Positions 8,283 through 63,997 of a stretch of DNA of 64,000 nt are shown one piece after another. A program made the translations under genes and the position numbers. Within the stretch, counting starts at the first letter, position 1. Every line of letters starts with the position of its first letter. Source of the stretch: Candidatus Saccharimonadota bacterium (GTDB taxonomy: Bacteria; Patescibacteriota; Saccharimonadia; Saccharimonadales; UBA10212); assembly GCA_016187125.1 (NCBI GenBank), contig JACPKF010000007.1, positions 835 to 64,834 on the forward strand. The letters are read 5' to 3'. The notes under the pieces are model-generated. The model was given only the letters and a program-made list of their open reading frames with translations, was not told the DNA's origin and did not search any database.

Positions 8283-8291
8283 CTTGTTGTA

Positions 8292-8333
8292 AGTACCCCA
8301 CTTTTGGTCCGATCGGACCAAAAGTGGGGTACT
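8292..8333. terminator. bidirectional hairpin terminator, perfect 42-nt palindrome centred on CCGATCGG
   Basis: agtaccccacttttggtccga|tcggaccaaaagtggggtact lies between convergent genes. A sister palindrome is at 25249-25288. Confidence 0.7.
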
Positions 8334-8346
8334 TTAGTATCTTAAT

Positions 8347-12088: not shown

Positions 12089-12173
12089 TCATAGCACAAA
12101 CCCCGCATATTTTCATGGCGTTTCGCAATCCGCCGCAGGCGGACTGCTCCACCCAGAAAATTGGCGGGGCAGG
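12089..12173 (+). repeat. 85-nt hairpin element (family F1) with core cgcaatccgccgNaggcggactgctccaccc
   Basis: Outer inverted repeat ccccgcatattttc / gaaaattggcgggg with an inner hairpin tccgcc/ggcgga. A second copy is at 14733-14808. It sits between the two rpoD 3'-end copies. Confidence 0.75.
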
Positions 12174-14692: not shown

Positions 14693-14732
14693 AATACCTA
14701 CCTACTATCTGTCTGGCGTATAATTTTAAGTA

Positions 14733-14808
14733 ACCCGCAGATCTTTTTGGGGAGTTGCGCAATCCGCCGAAGGCGGACTGCTCCACCCTGAAAAGGTATG
14801 GGGCAAGT
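14733..14808 (+). repeat. second copy of the F1 hairpin element
   Basis: The core gcgcaatccgccgaaggcggactgctccaccc (14757-14788) and flanking inverted repeats align with 12089-12173. Confidence 0.75.
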
Positions 14809-14852: not shown

Positions 14853-14927
14853 CCCAGCACCAAAATCTTGAAATTCTGCAATAGGGATATTCTCCCTCTT
14901 CTGCATTCAGGATTTGGTGCGGGGCAG
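14853..14927 (+). repeat. 75-nt MITE-like element (family F2), termini cccagcaccaaaatc / gatttggtgcggggcag
   Basis: Inverted termini. The first 20 nt (23 counting the preceding gac) and the last ~20 nt are near-identical to 24539-24611. The centre is variable. Confidence 0.8.
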
Positions 14928-21257: not shown

Positions 21258-21355
21258 AGAAATATGTAAGTATAAGCCCGGTAGTAGACCTGCCTAGGGC
21301 GGACTCACTACCGGGTAAGCACCTAGTTTTTGTCGACATCCGTACCTAGGATTTA

Positions 21356-25248: not shown

Positions 25249-25288
25249 TTACCCCAAAAAGTGTCCGATCGGACACTTTTTGGGGTAA
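25249..25288. terminator. bidirectional hairpin terminator, perfect 40-nt palindrome centred on CCGATCGG
   Basis: ttaccccaaaaagtgtccga|tcggacactttttggggtaa lies between convergent genes. Confidence 0.7.
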
Positions 25289-26683: not shown

Positions 26684-27796
26684 ATGCCTGAGCTTCCTGA
26701 AGTTGAGATTATAAAACAAGGCTTATCTAAACTATTGCCCGGGCGGATTATTGCCGACGTTTGGCACAACTGGCAAAAATCTTTTCCGAACGCGCCAGCG
26801 GATGTGGCCCGATTTTTGGTGGATGCCAAGATCATATCAGTTAAACGTCGGGCCAAAGTCTTGATAATTGAACTTTCCAGCGGCTACTCGCTGGTTGTCC
26901 ATTTAAAAATGACAGGGCAACTAGTTTTTGTGCCAAAAACCAGCGAGCAAAAAGCCCGCCTTCGCCAAAGCTACGGTCGACAGGCAAAAAGCAAAAAGCA
27001 AAAAGCCGAAAAAAAGTTTGGTGGTGGGCATCCGACCAAAAGCTTAATAGGTAAGCTGCCGGACAAATCAACCCGAGTCATTGTTGAGTTTTACCCCCCG
27101 AAAGGCGCGCGGGACATACGCTTGAGTACGTTGCAAGGAAAAGTTGAGCAACGGACTAAGCCGTATATGAAATACGGTGAAGGAGTAGCGCAGACTTTGA
27201 CACAGCAAAGTGCCAAGAGTGTCGCCGGAGTGCCAGGGCGACAGCCCGAGCAGCAGGGCGACACGGCGCATGGTCCGCGACTTTTTTTTAATGATCAGCG
27301 TAAGTTTGGCTGGATGCGCCTGCTGCCGACGGTTGAGGTGCCCCAGATTGACTTTATGAAAAAAGTCGGCCCGGAGCCGCTGGAAGATAATTTTACGGTT
27401 GGTGTGTTTATTGAAAGACTCAACCGCCGAAAAAACAGCTCGATAAAAGCTATGCTGCTGGATCAAACCGTGCTGGCTGGAGTGGGGAATATCTATGCTG
27501 ACGAATCCTTATTTGCCGCTAAAATCCATCCAGCTACCCCGGTTTTTAAAGTTTCTAAAGCAAAATTAGTAATGCTCCATAATGCCCTGCGCCAAATACT
27601 GCAGCAGGCAATAGATAAAGGCGGCAGCACGGACCGAAATTACGTTGATGTCAAAGGTAAAAAGGGGAGTTATCTGAACTTTGCCCAGGTTTTTAGAAGA
27701 CAAGGCCAAGTGTGTTCCCGCTGCGGAGGCGTCATACAGAAGATACGCGTAGCTGGAAGAGGTACTCACATATGTCCAAGGTGTCAAAAACGTTAA
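26684..27796 (+). CDS. mutM: formamidopyrimidine-DNA glycosylase with a ~62-aa internal insert
   Basis: N-terminal MPELPEVE, H2TH (GVGNIYADESLF) and a C-terminal zinc finger (CSRCGG...CPRCQ). It is 370 aa against about 270-290 aa for typical Fpg. Confidence 0.88.
   Translation: MPELPEVEIIKQGLSKLLPGRIIADVWHNWQKSFPNAPADVARFLVDAKIISVKRRAKVLIIELSSGYSLVVHLKMTGQLVFVPKTSEQKARLRQSYGRQAKSKKQKAEKKFGGGHPTKSLIGKLPDKSTRVIVEFYPPKGARDIRLSTLQGKVEQRTKPYMKYGEGVAQTLTQQSAKSVAGVPGRQPEQQGDTAHGPRLFFNDQRKFGWMRLLPTVEVPQIDFMKKVGPEPLEDNFTVGVFIERLNRRKNSSIKAMLLDQTVLAGVGNIYADESLFAAKIHPATPVFKVSKAKLVMLHNALRQILQQAIDKGGSTDRNYVDVKGKKGSYLNFAQVFRRQGQVCSRCGGVIQKIRVAGRGTHICPRCQKR
27092..27277 (+). repeat. in-frame translated insertion element (family F3) inside fpg
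   Basis: The core gagtacgttgcaagg...ccgtatatgaaatacggtgaaggagtagcgcag aligns with 37493-37583 in the UDG gene. Contains hairpins ccgtatatgaaatacgg and gtcgccggagtgccagggcgac. Confidence 0.75.
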
Positions 27797-29993: not shown

Positions 29994-30110
29994 ATGGATC
30001 CCGTTAGAACTCAAAAGACCAACAAAAATCACAAAGTGTTTGAAACCTCTACTGCTTTTCAATCGTTAATCAACACTAGAAAGTTAAGTGAGTTCTAACG
30101 GGATGGATCC
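29994..30110 (+). mobile_element. 101-nt MITE with 12-bp terminal inverted repeats and an 8-bp target-site duplication ATGGATCC
   Basis: Layout is ATGGATCC|cgttagaactca...tgagttctaacg(gg)|ATGGATCC. The right copy of the duplication is the start of the downstream gene. Confidence 0.7.
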
Positions 30111-36992: not shown

Positions 36993-37859
36993 ATGACCAA
37001 ACAAGAAGAACTTGCAAAAATTAAGGCTGATATTGTGAAGCAAAAAATTTGCCCAGACCTGGCCGCCGGTGCCACGCAACTGGTTTTTGGCGATGGTGAT
37101 CCGGACGCCGAGCTAGTCTTTATTGGTGAAGCGCCCGGTAAAAACGAAGATGAGCAAGGTCTGCCATTTGTCGGCGCGGCCGGTAAGTTTTTAAATGAGA
37201 TGCTAGCACTTATAGGGCTAAAACGTGAGGACGTATACATTACCAACATTGTTAAATATCGCCCGCCGGAAAATCGTGACCCATTGCCTGATGAAAAAAC
37301 GGTCTTTTTGCCGTTTTTGCATGCTCAGCTGGCAGTGATTAAGCCCAAAATTGTGGTAACGCTAGGCCGTCACAGCATGGAGTGCTTTTTGCCGGATCTG
37401 AAAATTAGTGTCTGTCACGGCCAAGCCAAAAGGATCAGAGTGGAGAATGGAGAGGGCAGAGTGAAGAAAGTCGTGGCAGGTGGCCAAGTGGCGAGTACGA
37501 TGCAAGGCGCAGGCGAGCAGCGGACTGAAACGTATGGAAAATACGGTGAAGGAGCAGCGCAGCCTGCAACACAGCAGCGTGCCGCAAGTGACAACAGTGT
37601 CGGTGGCTCTGCCGACGACCAGGTTGTTACGTCCTTGGTCATCCTGCCGTTGTTTCATCCGGCGGCGGCCTTATATAACGGCGGAATGCGCCAAACATTA
37701 ATAGACGATTTTATGAAGATACCGCGTATTTTAGCTAAACTTGAGCAGACGCCTAACTCTTTTGATAAACAAAAAACGCGGGAGGTGCAAGTTTCTGTCG
37801 TGTCTCAGCCAGAAGTTAAAAAAGCTGGCCCGAGCCAACTTCAATTAGGTATTAAGTGA
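36993..37859 (+). CDS. family-4 uracil-DNA glycosylase with a ~65-aa internal insert
   Basis: GEAPGKNEDEQGLPFVGAAGKFL and HPAAALYN are family-4 UDG motifs. It is 288 aa against about 190-210 aa typical. Confidence 0.85.
   Translation: MTKQEELAKIKADIVKQKICPDLAAGATQLVFGDGDPDAELVFIGEAPGKNEDEQGLPFVGAAGKFLNEMLALIGLKREDVYITNIVKYRPPENRDPLPDEKTVFLPFLHAQLAVIKPKIVVTLGRHSMECFLPDLKISVCHGQAKRIRVENGEGRVKKVVAGGQVASTMQGAGEQRTETYGKYGEGAAQPATQQRAASDNSVGGSADDQVVTSLVILPLFHPAAALYNGGMRQTLIDDFMKIPRILAKLEQTPNSFDKQKTREVQVSVVSQPEVKKAGPSQLQLGIK
37436..37638 (+). repeat. in-frame translated insertion element (family F3) inside the UDG gene
   Basis: gagtacgatgcaaggcgcaggcgagcagcggactgaaacgtatggaaaatacggtgaaggagcagcgcag is homologous to the fpg insert. 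The peptide is QGAGEQRTETYGKYGEGAAQ. Confidence 0.75.
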
Positions 37860-47042: not shown

Positions 47043-47180
47043 CAATTTTCAATGTCTAATTTTCAATTTTTATTCAATCTTCAAACCACTAATTTACAAA
47101 CGTTTGAGACATTGAGAATTGGATCATTGATTGAAAACTGGTAATTGTAAATTGATAATTCTCGACTGAAAGGAGCATAA
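47043..47180 (+). repeat. ssb-rpsR spacer made of short A/T-rich repeats forming a long hairpin
   Basis: The left arm ttttcaatgtct... pairs with agacattgagaa... Its right part (47121-47160) is the inverted complement of the rpsR-efp spacer (47390-47431). Confidence 0.6.
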
Positions 47181-47384: not shown

Positions 47385-47446
47385 TAAAGCAATTTACAAT
47401 TCTCAATTCACAATTTTCAATCAATGATCGATAACCAATTTTCAAA

Positions 47447-56311: not shown

Positions 56312-56340
56312 TTGCGCCTGTAGGAGTAGCAACTTATAAT
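56312..56340 (+). promoter_or_regulatory. promoter TTGCGC-17-TATAAT, 8 nt before the ATG at 56349 (leaderless type)
   Basis: cTTGCGCctgtaggagtagcaactTATAATgcttatgtATG. Confidence 0.45.
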
Positions 56341-56348
56341 GCTTATGT

Positions 56349-57605
56349 ATGTCCAGTAGTAGACCCCGTAGTGAGCTTTTGCGACCATCCGCTAAAGCGG
56401 ATGCTAAGCCAACCTTCGGTTGGCAACGCAAAAGTCTACTACGGGGCTCACTACTGGATATGAAACGAGCCAAAAAAATCTCGGCTCTGGCCTTAGGCAT
56501 TATCTATTTATTTCTTAGTTCTGGCTTGGCTTTGGCCGACAGCCGGCCGTATTTTAAAGTTTTTGGCGGCGATGTCTTTAGTGGCGGCTGGTTCAATAGC
56601 GGCACCAACTGCGATACAGCCACTAGCTCTTTTTACCAATACCCTAGTTATCAGCCGGCCGGTTATAATCAAGACGATCGAACTGGCGGCATTTTGAGTT
56701 TTGCCAAGCAAAACGGTGATGGCAATTCGCTGGGCGGTGCCAGCTCGCAATATGGCGCTTTTGCCCTAGGCATTATTGAAGGCTCTGCCGCTGGTGATGC
56801 CAGTAGCCACGGATTTTATAGCGCTGGCGCCCAAGCGGCCACCGGGACACCTACCTCAAGAAATTTGCTAAGTTTTGCTAACGCTGGTAGCTCGGCTAGC
56901 GTCTGGGGCGGTAAGTTTGATGGCGATGTGCCTCAAAGTAATTGCATCGCAGATTATTATGCTAAATTCCCAGATCCCGCGCCGCCGGCTCTGGCTTCAC
57001 TTGATTCGTCTACGGCTTCGGGGGTCTATAGCGCATCGGCTGGCAGTGGCACGACTTATAGTCTAAACGTCTCAGCCGTTAGTTTAAGACCTGGCACCAA
57101 AATAACCATTTACGTTAACGGCAATGTGTTTATAAGCCAAAATATTGTTTATCAGCTTGACAAGGTAGACAACGTGCCCAAGTTCGCACTAGTAGCCAAG
57201 GGTAATATCTATATAGATCCGGGTGTTACTCAACTAGACGGAGTTTATATCGCCCAACCCACAAGCGGCACCGACGGCGGTGATATCTGGACTTGCCATC
57301 CCAATAACACCGACGTTGTGTTATACACCTATCCCAGTAGCTGCACCAACCAGTTAGTGGTTAACGGATCTTTGATAGCCAAACGGGTAGCCTTGCTGCG
57401 GATCAAAGGCGACGTGACCGCCGCCTCAACCAGTGAGGATAATCTCAGTACTGTCGCGGCTTGCACGTCTGCTCCTGGCAGTTGCAATATCGCCGAGATA
57501 ATTAACTATCCGCCGGCCATGGTTGTAGGCGGACCGTTTTTCAACCCGCCTCCGCCCCCCGGCTTGCCAGTTGATAGCCTGATTGCTTTACCACCGGTGT
57601 TTTAA
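56349..57605 (+). CDS. secreted/cell-surface protein preceded by a repeat-encoded 37-aa extension (alternative start ATG 56460)
   Basis: A signal-peptide-like MKRAKKISALALGIIYLFLSSGLALA begins at 56460. A Gly/Ser/Thr-rich body follows, with a PPPPPG C-terminus. It lies directly upstream of the pilus genes. Confidence 0.55.
   Translation: MSSSRPRSELLRPSAKADAKPTFGWQRKSLLRGSLLDMKRAKKISALALGIIYLFLSSGLALADSRPYFKVFGGDVFSGGWFNSGTNCDTATSSFYQYPSYQPAGYNQDDRTGGILSFAKQNGDGNSLGGASSQYGAFALGIIEGSAAGDASSHGFYSAGAQAATGTPTSRNLLSFANAGSSASVWGGKFDGDVPQSNCIADYYAKFPDPAPPALASLDSSTASGVYSASAGSGTTYSLNVSAVSLRPGTKITIYVNGNVFISQNIVYQLDKVDNVPKFALVAKGNIYIDPGVTQLDGVYIAQPTSGTDGGDIWTCHPNNTDVVLYTYPSSCTNQLVVNGSLIAKRVALLRIKGDVTAASTSEDNLSTVAACTSAPGSCNIAEIINYPPAMVVGGPFFNPPPPPGLPVDSLIALPPVF
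56353..56457 (+). repeat. 105-nt three-way-junction element inserted right after the ATG at 56349
   Basis: Outer arms ccagtagtagaccccgtagtgagc / tctactacggggctcactactgg, then stem ttttgcg/cgcaaaa, then hairpins catccgc-taaa-gcggatg and gccaacc-ttc-ggttggc. Confidence 0.7.
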
Positions 57606-57680: not shown

Positions 57681-58721
57681 ATGCATATACTAGGTGGGAC
57701 GTCGGACTTCTTTGGCTTAGACATGGGAGTCAGCGCAGTTAGGGTAGTGCAACTCAAAGGAACAGGACCCACTAAGACGCTGGATCGCTACGGGCAGACG
57801 CCTATCACTGGCACTGTGGCTCTGAGTGACTCTAAGGCCGACCGCCAAAGGATCGCCCAGGTGATCCATGAGTTAACGACGCGGGTAGGTATATCAACTA
57901 AAAATGTGGCGGCTAATTTACCCTCTAGCCGGGTGTTTACGACAGTTATTGATATAGATCGTCTACCGCCTGAAGAGCTTGCCAAGACCATAAGCTATCA
58001 AGCCGAGTCGTATATTCCGACTCCCTTGTCTCAGTCTAAAATTGACTGGGCAATTATTGGTAACTCGCCTAAAGACCCTGGCAAAATTGAACTCCTGCTA
58101 TCTAGTGTGCCCAATGATTTCATCGAAAGGCGGCTCGAGATATTGGAATCCATAGGTCTCAATGTAGTGGCTTTTGAGCCTGATAACATGGCTCTAGTGC
58201 GAGCTATTACTTCACCTGATACGGCTGCTCCTTGGCTAATACTTGATATTGGCAATGCTGCGACGGATTTGGTAGTTGTAGTTGGCGGTATGCCACACTT
58301 GGCTCGTTCTATTCCTATGGGTCAGCAAGCTTTTGTCCGGGCAGCTATTCAAGGTTTGGGAGTTGATCCTTCTCAGGCGGAGCAGTTTGTGTTTAAGTTT
58401 GGCCTGTCTCGCGACAAGCTAGAAGGCCAGGTCTATGACGCCATAATTGGGACTATTGACGGTCTGGTGGCGGAGATCGAAAAATCTATTAAATTCTTTG
58501 GCGAGCGCTACAGAGGCGCCAAGTTGGAGGGGATAGTTGTAACTGGTGGCGCTTCGACATTACCTGAACTGCCGCTTTATCTGGCTAATAAATTTAACTT
58601 GAATGTCGAAATTGGCAACGCTTGGCGGAATGTTAATGTGCCAACCGAACGGCAAAACGAGGTGCTGGCGGTTTCTAACCACTTTGCCGTAGCCGTAGGC
58701 CTGGCGGAGAGAGAGACATGA
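57681..58721 (+). CDS. pilM: type IV pilus assembly protein PilM
   Basis: Actin-like ATPase fold: FGLDMGVSAVRVVQLKG ... LDIGNAATDLVVV ... VVTGGAS. Confidence 0.85.
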   Translation: MHILGGTSDFFGLDMGVSAVRVVQLKGTGPTKTLDRYGQTPITGTVALSDSKADRQRIAQVIHELTTRVGISTKNVAANLPSSRVFTTVIDIDRLPPEELAKTISYQAESYIPTPLSQSKIDWAIIGNSPKDPGKIELLLSSVPNDFIERRLEILESIGLNVVAFEPDNMALVRAITSPDTAAPWLILDIGNAATDLVVVVGGMPHLARSIPMGQQAFVRAAIQGLGVDPSQAEQFVFKFGLSRDKLEGQVYDAIIGTIDGLVAEIEKSIKFFGERYRGAKLEGIVVTGGASTLPELPLYLANKFNLNVEIGNAWRNVNVPTERQNEVLAVSNHFAVAVGLAERET

Positions 58722-58844
58722 CTACGTCATTCCCGTTCACCGTTCACCGTGCACCGTTCACCGTTAATACATGGTCAACGGTCAATGGCAAATGTAAGGT
58801 AAATGGTAGATGGCTAATTGTAAATGCCTCCGAAGGAGGATCTT
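58722..58844 (+). repeat. pilM-pilN spacer: (ttcaccg)n / (cggtaaa-like)n heptad hairpin plus an SD-sequestering hairpin
   Basis: tcccgttcaccgttcaccgtgcaccgttcaccgtta ... caacggtcaatggcaaatgtaaggtaaatggtagatgg, then cctcc-gaa-ggagg (58827-58839). It is homologous to 63863-63997. Confidence 0.75.
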
Positions 58845-59555
58845 GTGGCTAGGATTCAATTTAACCTGCTGCCGGACGTTAAACTGCAATTTGATAAGGC
58901 CAAACGTGTCCAGAATCTAGTCTTTAGGGTAGCTACTGCTGCCAGCGCTACCATGCTGGGTCTCTTTTTGGTGATGCTGGTCGTGGTCCATGTAGTCCAA
59001 AAATCGCAGCTCAGTAGCGCTGCTAAGGCCCAAGATACACTTAGTAGCCAACTAAGCAATATCCCAAATCTAGGACAAATTATAACTATTCAGAATCAGC
59101 TCAAGACATTGGTTGGGTTGCATCAAGCCAAGCACGTTAGCTCGCGCATCTTTACATACTTACCCCAGGTAACTCCGTCAAATGCCAGTATTGGCAAGCT
59201 CGATATAGATCTGGCGGGCAGTACTATGAGCATATCGGGCAATGCCGATTCACAAAAAACGGTTAATACCTTCATTGATACTCTAAAGTTCACGACTTAC
59301 ATGGTTGGTGACCAAGATACCCCTCATAGCGCTTTTACTTCAGTGGTGGAAAGTACCTTTGCCATTAATGCCACCAATGTTAGCTATACCTTAGACATTA
59401 GCTTTGACCCCCAGCTTTTTGCCAACAACTTACTTGACAGCCAAGATCATCCCCAGGAGCCTAAGTTGTCCGTGCCTAAACTTACGACTACCAAGTCGGG
59501 AGTTAATGATGCCAACAATCCAATATTTAAAACTCAATCTGGCGGAGGACAATAA
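58845..59555 (+). CDS. pilN: type IV pilus assembly protein PilN-like
   Basis: N-terminus VARIQFNLLPD followed by a TM helix. GTG start 5 nt after the SD aaggagga. The ORF track start at 58824 lies inside the hairpin. Confidence 0.7.
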   Translation: MARIQFNLLPDVKLQFDKAKRVQNLVFRVATAASATMLGLFLVMLVVVHVVQKSQLSSAAKAQDTLSSQLSNIPNLGQIITIQNQLKTLVGLHQAKHVSSRIFTYLPQVTPSNASIGKLDIDLAGSTMSISGNADSQKTVNTFIDTLKFTTYMVGDQDTPHSAFTSVVESTFAINATNVSYTLDISFDPQLFANNLLDSQDHPQEPKLSVPKLTTTKSGVNDANNPIFKTQSGGGQ

Positions 59556-60505: not shown

Positions 60506-60777
60506 GTTTGATAACGGAAGATTAGTAGCATGAATCCTATTAGACTCCAAAAAGATACGGGGGGGATTAATCCCGTTAGACCTATAGCAGAGAATTTCAC
60601 ATTTCACATTTCACATTTCACATTTATTTTACATTTACCATTTGACAGTTTAGACCAATGGTCAATGCTAAATACCAAATCATTGTCTTCGACTCTGAGG
60701 GATGAGACCTCAGGCTCAGACTCGAACGAGAAAATTGGTAATTGTAAATTGGTAATTGCCTCCAAAGGAGGCTGGGG
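60506..60777 (+). repeat. spacer upstream of pilB with (tttcaca)n heptads, an F4-like unit and an SD-sequestering hairpin
   Basis: Contains tttcacatttcacatttcacattt, gactctgagggatgagacctcaggctcagactcgaa and gcctcc-aaa-ggaggc (60758-60772) before the ATG at 60778. Confidence 0.7.
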
Positions 60778-63862: not shown

Positions 63863-63997
63863 AGTCGTGACTGCGTCACTCCCGTTCACCGTTCACTGTT
63901 CACCGTTCACCATTAAGGCACGGGTAATAGTTAACGGTAAATGCACGGTAAATGGTAAAAGGCTAATGGTAAATGTGGCTTCGAAGGGAGCCGTCTG
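63863..63997 (+). repeat. spacer after pilT, paralogous to the pilM-pilN spacer
   Basis: tcccgttcaccgttcactgttcaccgttcaccatta ... ttaacggtaaatgcacggtaaatggtaaaagg, then ggcttc-gaag-ggagcc (63977-63992) sequestering the SD before the ATG at 63998. Confidence 0.75.

Follow-up and report, generated by a model that had tools for sequence, protein, structure and literature searches.

The Rickettsia palindromic elements (RPE) are short mobile repeats that often lie in frame within protein genes and are translated as extra peptide segments (PMC10969869). Here we describe an element with comparable behavior on the start codon of a secreted-protein gene, upstream of the type IV pilus genes pilM-pilN-pilO-pilB, in a 64,000-nt stretch of a Candidatus Saccharimonadota genome (GenBank assembly GCA_016187125.1, contig JACPKF010000007.1; the whole stretch is referred to as the window, and all positions are window positions). 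The element (107 nt, 56352–56458, + strand, as are all features of this locus given below) is a copy of a dispersed miniature inverted-repeat transposable element (MITE), here named family A. Like RPE, family A is short, palindromic and mobile in a reduced-genome, host-dependent bacterium, and it lies in frame in the window and in L008, L033, L100 and L128 (L numbers denote the loci compared). Unlike RPE, to which it has no sequence relation, it is hosted by Saccharibacteria of the Candidate Phyla Radiation (CPR), is mostly intergenic, and has clear 4-bp target-site duplications, two hypervariable hairpins and an arm pair that is asymmetric and conserved.

The Correia (NEMIS) elements of Neisseria are MITEs that are co-transcribed as long hairpins upstream of genes, where cleavage by RNase III alters expression (PMC10969869). 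Family A resembles them in its long terminal inverted repeats, its landing just upstream of genes and its long RNA hairpin. Correia elements duplicate TA, carry promoters and an IHF site, and have inverted repeats of ∼26 bp. Family A is not a Correia element, because both the duplication (4 bp, G|YWWR|C) and the arms, which are unrelated, differ; in addition, no outward promoter is evident in its right arm on inspection by eye. The REP/REPIN elements with their RAYT transposases, a subject of work by Nunvar in 2010 and by Bertels & Rainey in 2011, reportedly carry GTAG near their ends, consist of hairpin-forming halves and make no target-site duplication. GTAG near each end, inverted halves, pairing-preserving changes and many intergenic copies are also found in family A, which is nevertheless not a REP/REPIN element because a target-site duplication flanks most of its copies; no RAYT gene was seen, although no search aimed at one was made.

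As in cis-regulatory leader RNAs, a structured RNA lies between promoter and start, and the AUG is occluded. Riboswitches and RNA thermometers, however, have a conserved orthologous position and core, whereas this element is absent from most homologous loci and its cores are hypervariable. Family A is a MITE with RPE-like behavior, and goes beyond the ordinary in its conserved three-way junction with hypervariable hairpins, its recurrent hits on one start codon and the presence of a companion, family B. Our literature search, incomplete in its coverage, found no paper that joins MITEs with either Saccharibacteria or Patescibacteria, or with start-codon coupling.

Insertion into a conserved, probably leaderless start

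The region upstream of the secreted-protein gene contains a conserved 17-mer, TATAATGCTTATGTATG (56335–56351), which, allowing 0–2 mismatches, precedes 45 homologs (37 distinct sequences) whose protein identity ranges down to 35%. It is composed of a −10 box TATAAT (56335–56340), a spacer of eight invariant nucleotides and the presumably leaderless ancestral start ATG (56349–56351), which begins 8 nt past the −10 box. A −35-like hexamer, TTGCGC (56312–56317), lies 17 nt ahead of the −10 box. The −35 box agrees with the consensus at only three of six positions, and as a result TTGCGC-17-TATAAT was not called by a consensus promoter scanner. The case for a genuine promoter is instead one of conservation, since TATA(A/C)TGCTTATGTATG is kept across 37 distinct homologous loci, and a TTG lies 16–18 nt upstream of the −10 box in 26 of them. 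The promoter had been proposed, at the same coordinates, in an earlier reading of the window made from the sequence without database searches (the sequence-only reading), and it gains support from this conservation. Because the −10 box is separated from the ATG by only 8 nt, which leave no space for a ribosome-binding site, the natural reading is that the ancestral mRNA of this gene would have been leaderless.

The spacer itself, GCTTATGT (56341–56348; at the same position in L001–L073), is invariant in homologs down to 35% protein identity, which exceeds the conservation that promoter spacers normally show. It could be a regulator site or a signal for transcription-start selection.

In most homologous loci, the ATG of the 17-mer directly opens the open reading frame (ORF). 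The sequence TATAATGCTTATGT-ATG continues into the coding sequence with no insert in L001, L002 and L004 (for example, TATAATGCTTATGT-ATGAAGCGTGCG in L004 and ...ATGGGGCTAACC in L001/L002), and the insert is missing from L001, L002 and L005, which encode the closest relatives of the window protein (68–73% protein identity). The empty sites of L001, L002, L004 and L006 hold a single TATG, and ∼30 further loci also run from the 17-mer directly into the ORF. In the window, TATG is present on both sides of the element, at 56348–56351 and 56459–56462, and the downstream copy includes a regenerated start codon (56460–56462). The comparison shows that a family A MITE transposed into the TATG at 56348–56351 that overlaps the start codon of the leaderless gene. 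The ancestral sequence was TATAAT-GCTTATGT-ATGAAACGAGCC, and uninterrupted relatives, L035 and L037 among them, agree with its reconstruction, TATAATGCTTATGTATGAAACGAGCC.

The same event explains why the second ATG (56460) has no Shine-Dalgarno sequence: the 4-bp duplication regenerated the ancestral start codon, and the bases upstream of it are the right arm of the element. The sequence-only reading had noted this ATG as the start of a signal peptide without a Shine-Dalgarno sequence, which the sequence confirms, and had suggested that something was inserted between a leaderless-type start and the signal peptide. The suggestion is borne out by homologs that start at the second ATG and by the uninterrupted L001, L002 and L004. 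The sequence-only reading had also said that homologous loci lacking the element with no difference in expression would refute it; the nearest homologous loci do lack the element.

The window is not the only locus in which this start codon has been hit. Family A inserts occupy the same site in the same orientation in L008 and L033, and in the opposite orientation and with a longer interior in L052/L053. A second element, family B (CCCGTTAGA...TCTAACGGG), whose arms are unrelated to those of family A, fills the site in L003, L016 and L017. Among the 37 loci, at least three family A and at least two family B insertions at this leaderless start are independent events. We infer that the leaderless start of this gene is a recurrent, tolerated "safe harbour", from which repeated hits on the same few bases in different lineages would follow.

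Structure of the element

The window copy is a double-arm variant of family A, identified by its fold, by the anatomy of the family and by a covariance model. Fold and family anatomy define the outer arms, TCCAGTAGTAGAC (56352–56364) and GCTCACTACTGGA (56446–56458), and the inner arms, CCCCGTAGTGAGC (56364–56376) and GTCTACTACGGGG (56434–56446), which are followed by the extended arms TTTTGCG (56377–56383) and CGCAAAA (56427–56433). Together with this stem, hairpin 1 (CATCCGC-TAAA-GCGGATG, 56386–56403) and hairpin 2 (GCCAACC-TTC-GGTTGGC, 56408–56424) form a three-way junction. The outer stem has ∼34 paired positions with three single-base interruptions, and is capped by the two hairpins (loops UAAA and UUC). 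The predicted folding free energy is −75.9 kcal/mol, compared to a mean of −33.8 for shuffled sequences (z = −10.2), and none of 200 shuffles folds equally well. Thus, the highly ordered element that the sequence-only reading had placed after the first ATG is real as a fold, while its length is 107 nt and not 105, a small difference. The opposite strand folds nearly as well, as expected of an inverted-repeat DNA element.

The first ATG (56349) and the second (56460) are 111 nt apart and share a frame that contains no intervening stop; on either strand, the window copy can be read in frame without a stop. In the double-arm layout, the outer AGAC/GCTC pair abuts the inner GAGC/GTCT pair, an arrangement also seen in L107. 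A nested insertion was considered as the source of the double arms and ruled out: no internal duplication or loop remnant is present between the arms, and L107 has the identical layout.

The element matches no RNA family in Rfam. The Rfam scan that the sequence-only reading had recommended returned no match at the gathering score over the window, and at a permissive threshold around the element it gave only mir-2483, at 18 bits against a threshold of 75, a chance match. A tRNA/tmRNA scan also found nothing.

Family A is a dispersed MITE

Further copies were collected by scanning one genome per species with the pattern GTAGTAGAC-N(52-82)-RCTCACTACBGGR, whose single 52–82 nt gap leads to under-counting of mini and long copies. 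The scan gave 64 stretches, of which ∼55 are in metagenome-assembled genomes (MAGs) of Saccharibacteria, with a maximum of six exact-arm copies per MAG. A few matches are in Lloydbacteria, and ∼4 resemble chance matches (L090, L105, L110 and L115). The arms follow the pattern CCCNGTAGT-AGAC...GCTC-ACTACNGGG, and the layout common to the aligned copies is a 4-bp repeat, CCCNGTAGTAGAC, TTTCGAG, hairpin 1, hairpin 2, CTCGAAA, GCTCACTACNGGG and the same 4-bp repeat. The 13-nt arms belonged to the search pattern, which in part imposes their identity; neither the extended arms nor the flanking CC/GG belonged to it. Similarly, every element seen (∼65 from the scan and six local ones) pairs an ...AGAC arm with a ...GAGC arm, with the same small helix mismatch throughout, a pairing that the scan pattern required and for which the six local elements are independent evidence.

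The flanking 4-bp direct repeat is perfect in 36 of the 64 copies and has one mismatch in 13 more, compared to 0 of 64 for the next four nucleotides outward, which served as control. The reconstructed target consensus is G|YWWR|C (CAAG, CTTA/TAAG, TCAA, TATA, CATA/TATG and others). Copies range from 39 to 107 nt, occur in both orientations, are mostly intergenic, and contain no ORF beyond the read-through frames and no transposase gene. A few lie in frame inside genes: residues 174–203 of a protein in L128, inside an NAD_binding_1 domain (of the 109 profile positions, the match ends at position 49); residues 132–161 of a 517-residue methyltransferase ORF in L100; and the end of SelR in L142. 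Small size, shared terminal inverted repeats, a target-site duplication of fixed length, many copies and filled as well as empty orthologous sites are thus all present, and it is the combination of arms, 4-bp duplications, dispersal and filled versus empty sites that identifies the element as a MITE. The one part of a MITE system not seen is an autonomous partner: no arm pairs located 0.5–3 kb apart around a transposase-like ORF were found in the ∼1 Mb of fetched loci.

A three-way junction is predicted for 60 of 63 copies, with hairpin 1 mostly starting at nucleotide 23 and loops of 3–5 nt. The cores fold better than their shuffles (mean z = −4.2), though 63 of the 64 core sequences are unique and the hairpin sequences are not conserved. 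Compensatory double changes in the outer stem number 18, 6, 4, 15 and 7 at five pairs. RNAalifold applied to a MAFFT alignment retrieves the outer stem and nothing else, since the variability of the hairpins prevents their alignment; their conservation is accordingly one of single-sequence folds compared to shuffles, not of column-wise covariation. A covariance model built from 47 copies matches the inner unit of the window element with 80.5 bits (E = 4e-20). The three-way junction is the family's own architecture in nearly all copies, not a device that evolved for this gene.

The same model detects a second copy in the window, a 39-nt mini element consisting of arms only (21277–21315, + strand; 31.3 bits, E = 1.8e-6), flanked by TAAG on both sides. 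It sits between two convergent genes and may act as a bidirectional terminator-like hairpin. A 24-nt arm search of the window had matched only the element itself and implied a single-copy feature, which was overturned by 12-nt arm searches and by the model once the copy at 21277 was found. The model also has a weak match at 14853–14924 (E = 0.015).

Several copies outside the main host group are of related design. Those of the Lloydbacteria MAGs (L108, L123, L135 and L145) have the same 13-nt termini and 4-bp duplications, with unstructured interiors of ∼75 nt (z∼0), and L145 holds three family B and two family A copies within 8 kb. The same termini and duplications are found in L096 and L126, from a MAG labelled Spirochaetia, where a mini copy is nested in a full one.

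Family B elements and apparently coupled reading frames

Family B is also represented in the window, at 30000–30102 (+ strand; CCCGTTAGA...TCTAACGGG), at the start codon of a different gene, where ATGGAT is duplicated. A 34-codon open frame runs through this copy and ends at a TAA located 4 nt before the ATG at 30108. In total, 11 copies of 73–136 nt were found, 10 of them on start codons with a 6-bp duplication ATGRRT. The genes affected are the secreted-protein gene, pilM and unrelated genes in L092, L128, L145 and the window (30000–30102). The other copies include L003:1507-1612, L016:1397-1500, L017:509-609, L038:2551-2686, L092:2498-2570, L128:4548-4651, L145:3950-4064 and L145:4724-4841; when the identical L038/L039 pair is counted once, nine distinct start-codon copies remain.

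In all nine, the frame that begins at the upstream ATG (MxPVR...) is open through the whole element, over 24–45 codons. It ends in the right repeat, either at a TAA 4 nt ahead of the real ATG or at a TGA that overlaps it. The other two frames hold stops in 16 of 18 cases, and none of the copy lengths is a multiple of three. For these open frames, the shuffle probabilities multiply to 1e-7. Judged by the frames, the arrangement looks like a built-in coupling of termination and reinitiation, and ribosomes that start at the original upstream ATG and cross the inserted repeat appear to keep the downstream gene expressed in these genomes. Because the frames stay open up to the regenerated ATG, translation from the upstream ATG would seem to matter in this lineage.

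Expression of the secreted-protein gene after insertion

We consider it probable that, after the family A MITE landed on its leaderless start, the gene has continued to be expressed by in-frame read-through of the element. Transcription would still begin at the conserved promoter, and ribosomes would load on the 5′-terminal AUG before the 3′ arm is transcribed. They would then translate the 36 stop-free, in-frame codons of the MITE and continue into the signal peptide. Signal peptidase would remove the 37-residue extension along with the signal peptide, leaving the mature protein unchanged. Read-through of the window element is suggested by analogy with the open frames of family B, its strongest indirect support, and would account for the 418-residue public annotation of the protein. 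The inserts of L008 and L033 are likewise in frame and open, with 30 codons each, and the in-frame copies inside the genes of L100, L128 and L142 also speak for it. The window extension is basic (8 K/R compared to 3 D/E), and fold computations indicate that the first AUG is unpaired as long as only the first 75 nt of the transcript exist. The sequence-only reading had left two possibilities, a 37-residue basic pre-extension or an RNA switch or processing site. The former is the one we prefer, while a dedicated RNA device is at odds with the dispersal of the repeat, its duplications and its variable hairpins.

A number of observations weigh against read-through. In the fold of the full transcript, both AUGs lie at the end of the helix, with unpaired probabilities of 0.16/0.04/0.004 for the three nucleotides of the first and 0.04/0.16/0.95 for those of the second, and such a stable 5′ helix should, as modeled, hinder leaderless initiation. 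An insert would be both in frame and open by chance with a frequency of ∼0.27 (∼41% in the right length class, ∼60% open), and the shuffle probabilities of an open interior are 0.35–0.62. Because the chance level is this high, the in-frame status of the window copy is weak evidence of selection. The insert of L052/L053 reaches a stop after 14 codons, without coupling, and the gene is nonetheless intact. A 43-residue n-region ahead of a signal peptide is unusual. A bias of family A towards in-frame lengths was also looked for and rejected, as the length classes (26/19/18, ∼60% open) do not differ significantly.

The strongest competitor, possible but distinctly less likely, accepts the same MITE insertion and has the protein made from the second AUG, either after the helix is cut (e.g. 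by RNase III) or when it breathes; alternatively, the helix would throttle translation and act as a down-regulator. The near-perfect helix of ∼34 bp is a plausible substrate for a double-strand-specific RNase, and Correia elements offer a documented case of MITE inverted repeats being cut by RNase III (PMC10969869). At equilibrium, the helix masks both AUGs, homologs start from the second ATG, and the L052/L053 gene is intact without an open frame across the insert. However, the second AUG lacks a Shine-Dalgarno sequence, a cut in the stem would leave a leader of ∼10–25 nt and not a 5′-terminal AUG, and family B, in the same lineage, points strongly to translation from the upstream ATG.

The remaining explanations fare much worse. 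A stable, ordered fold between a promoter and a start codon is what a dedicated cis-regulatory RNA, be it a riboswitch, a thermosensor or a processing signal, evolved to control the surface protein would present. Such a role is very unlikely, given that the closest homologous loci lack the element, that dozens of copies lie elsewhere, mostly intergenic, in either orientation and with target-site duplications, that the hairpins are not conserved and match no Rfam family, and that a different element fills the same site in other lineages. We give still less weight to an inverton, in which the inverted repeats would serve as recombination sites and flipping would cause phase variation of the surface protein. 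Inverted repeats do lie upstream of a surface-protein gene, their orientation differs between lineages (L008 compared to L052), and neither strand of the window copy has a stop in frame; yet the copies are dispersed across genomes and flanked by direct 4-bp duplications, no recombinase domain was found in the neighboring genes tested, and the promoter lies outside the repeat. Translational bypass, for which phage T4 gene 60 and the mitochondrial "byp" elements are precedents and by which the initiator tRNA-ribosome complex would leave the 5′ AUG and land on the identical AUG beyond the hairpin, is the least credible of all, since the target-site duplication fully accounts for the identical UAUG on either side of a compact hairpin, known bypasses span less than the 111-nt gap, and the family B frames that end at the second ATG favor ordinary translation and reinitiation.

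In-frame read-through thus remains our preferred account of the window locus. More tentatively, and with the balance of expectation against it, miniature elements of CPR bacteria (Saccharibacteria and some others) might be adapted for insertion at start codons in a way that leaves the gene active: the ATG would be duplicated, the frame kept stop-free, and expression maintained by reinitiation in family B or by fusion to a disposable n-region in family A. If so, the window element would be selfish DNA that is translated but concealed in the removable portion of a secretory precursor, and the leaderless start of a pilus-adjacent gene would be a recurrent safe-harbour hot spot. The repeated insertions at this start also provide natural constructs that bear on the tolerance of a leaderless gene for 5′ structure and extra coding sequence.

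The secreted protein

From its ancestral start, the gene (56460–57605, + strand, upstream of pilM-pilN-pilO-pilB) encodes 381 residues, while the NCBI annotation, HYW35_03735, is the 418-residue ORF from the first ATG (P0001, 100% identity). The ATG at 56460 opens MKRAKKISALALGIIYLFLSSGLALA|DSRPYF, a classical signal peptide. Homologs of ∼380 residues cover ∼91% of the 418-residue query, with alignments that begin at the second ATG. The protein belongs to no Pfam family and has no relative in the PDB detectable by sequence. Its AlphaFold model (predicted local distance difference test score, pLDDT, of 62) gave no significant fold match (best E = 0.74). The confident part of the model (residues ∼165–335) is β-rich. 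The top matches, weak and non-significant, are β-solenoids of the ice-binding type and the competence pilin ComZ. The family carries an invariant C-terminal ...SLISLPPVF.

Other repeats in the window

Apart from families A and B, a third type of repeat is located at 58722–58844 and 63863–63975 (81% identical), with related stretches at 60590–60777, 47122–47160 and 47391–47429. It is characterized by RTGACTRCGTCAYTCCCGTTCACCG, by (CACCGTT)n ... (AATGGT)n and by a terminal anti-SD/SD (Shine-Dalgarno) hairpin, CCTCC-GAA-GGAGG. The copy at 58722–58844 splits the ancestral ATGA overlap of pilM and pilN, and pilN now starts from a GTG (58845) preceded by a Shine-Dalgarno sequence that the repeat itself provides; the insert is crossed by an open 44-codon ORF (58718–58852).

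Upstream of pilB (ATG 60778), the segment 60530–60781 reads ATGAAT|CCTATTAGACTCC..., a 248-nt composite insert, and then |ATGAATATTTTATCG. Relatives instead carry GTGAATGTTTTATCG ∼25 nt after the preceding 88-residue gene. An 83-codon ORF is open throughout the insert, its TGA overlapping the pilB ATG, and the insert supplies an AAGGAGG 7 nt upstream of that ATG.

The window elements cluster near the type IV pilus genes, at the secreted-protein gene, the pilM/pilN junction and pilB. Type IV pili have a central part in the episymbiotic way of life (e.g. PMC9894109, PMC11623550), and insertions at these sites could modulate the expression of host-attachment functions. The analysis points to a clearly delimited MITE family, and to another family associated with start codons, in a phylum whose genomes are usually called streamlined. 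Public protein records (the 418-residue HYW35_03735, P0017 and P0104) carry N-terminal extensions encoded by such repeats, and structured-RNA screens of CPR genomes will go on flagging the repeats as candidate riboregulators.

Small structured repeats are unusually frequent in this genome. Further long perfect palindromes or repeated structured intergenic segments in the window are located at 8291–8334 and 25249–25288, and as the pairs 12098–12171 / 14732–14805 and 27124–27221 / 37493–37590.

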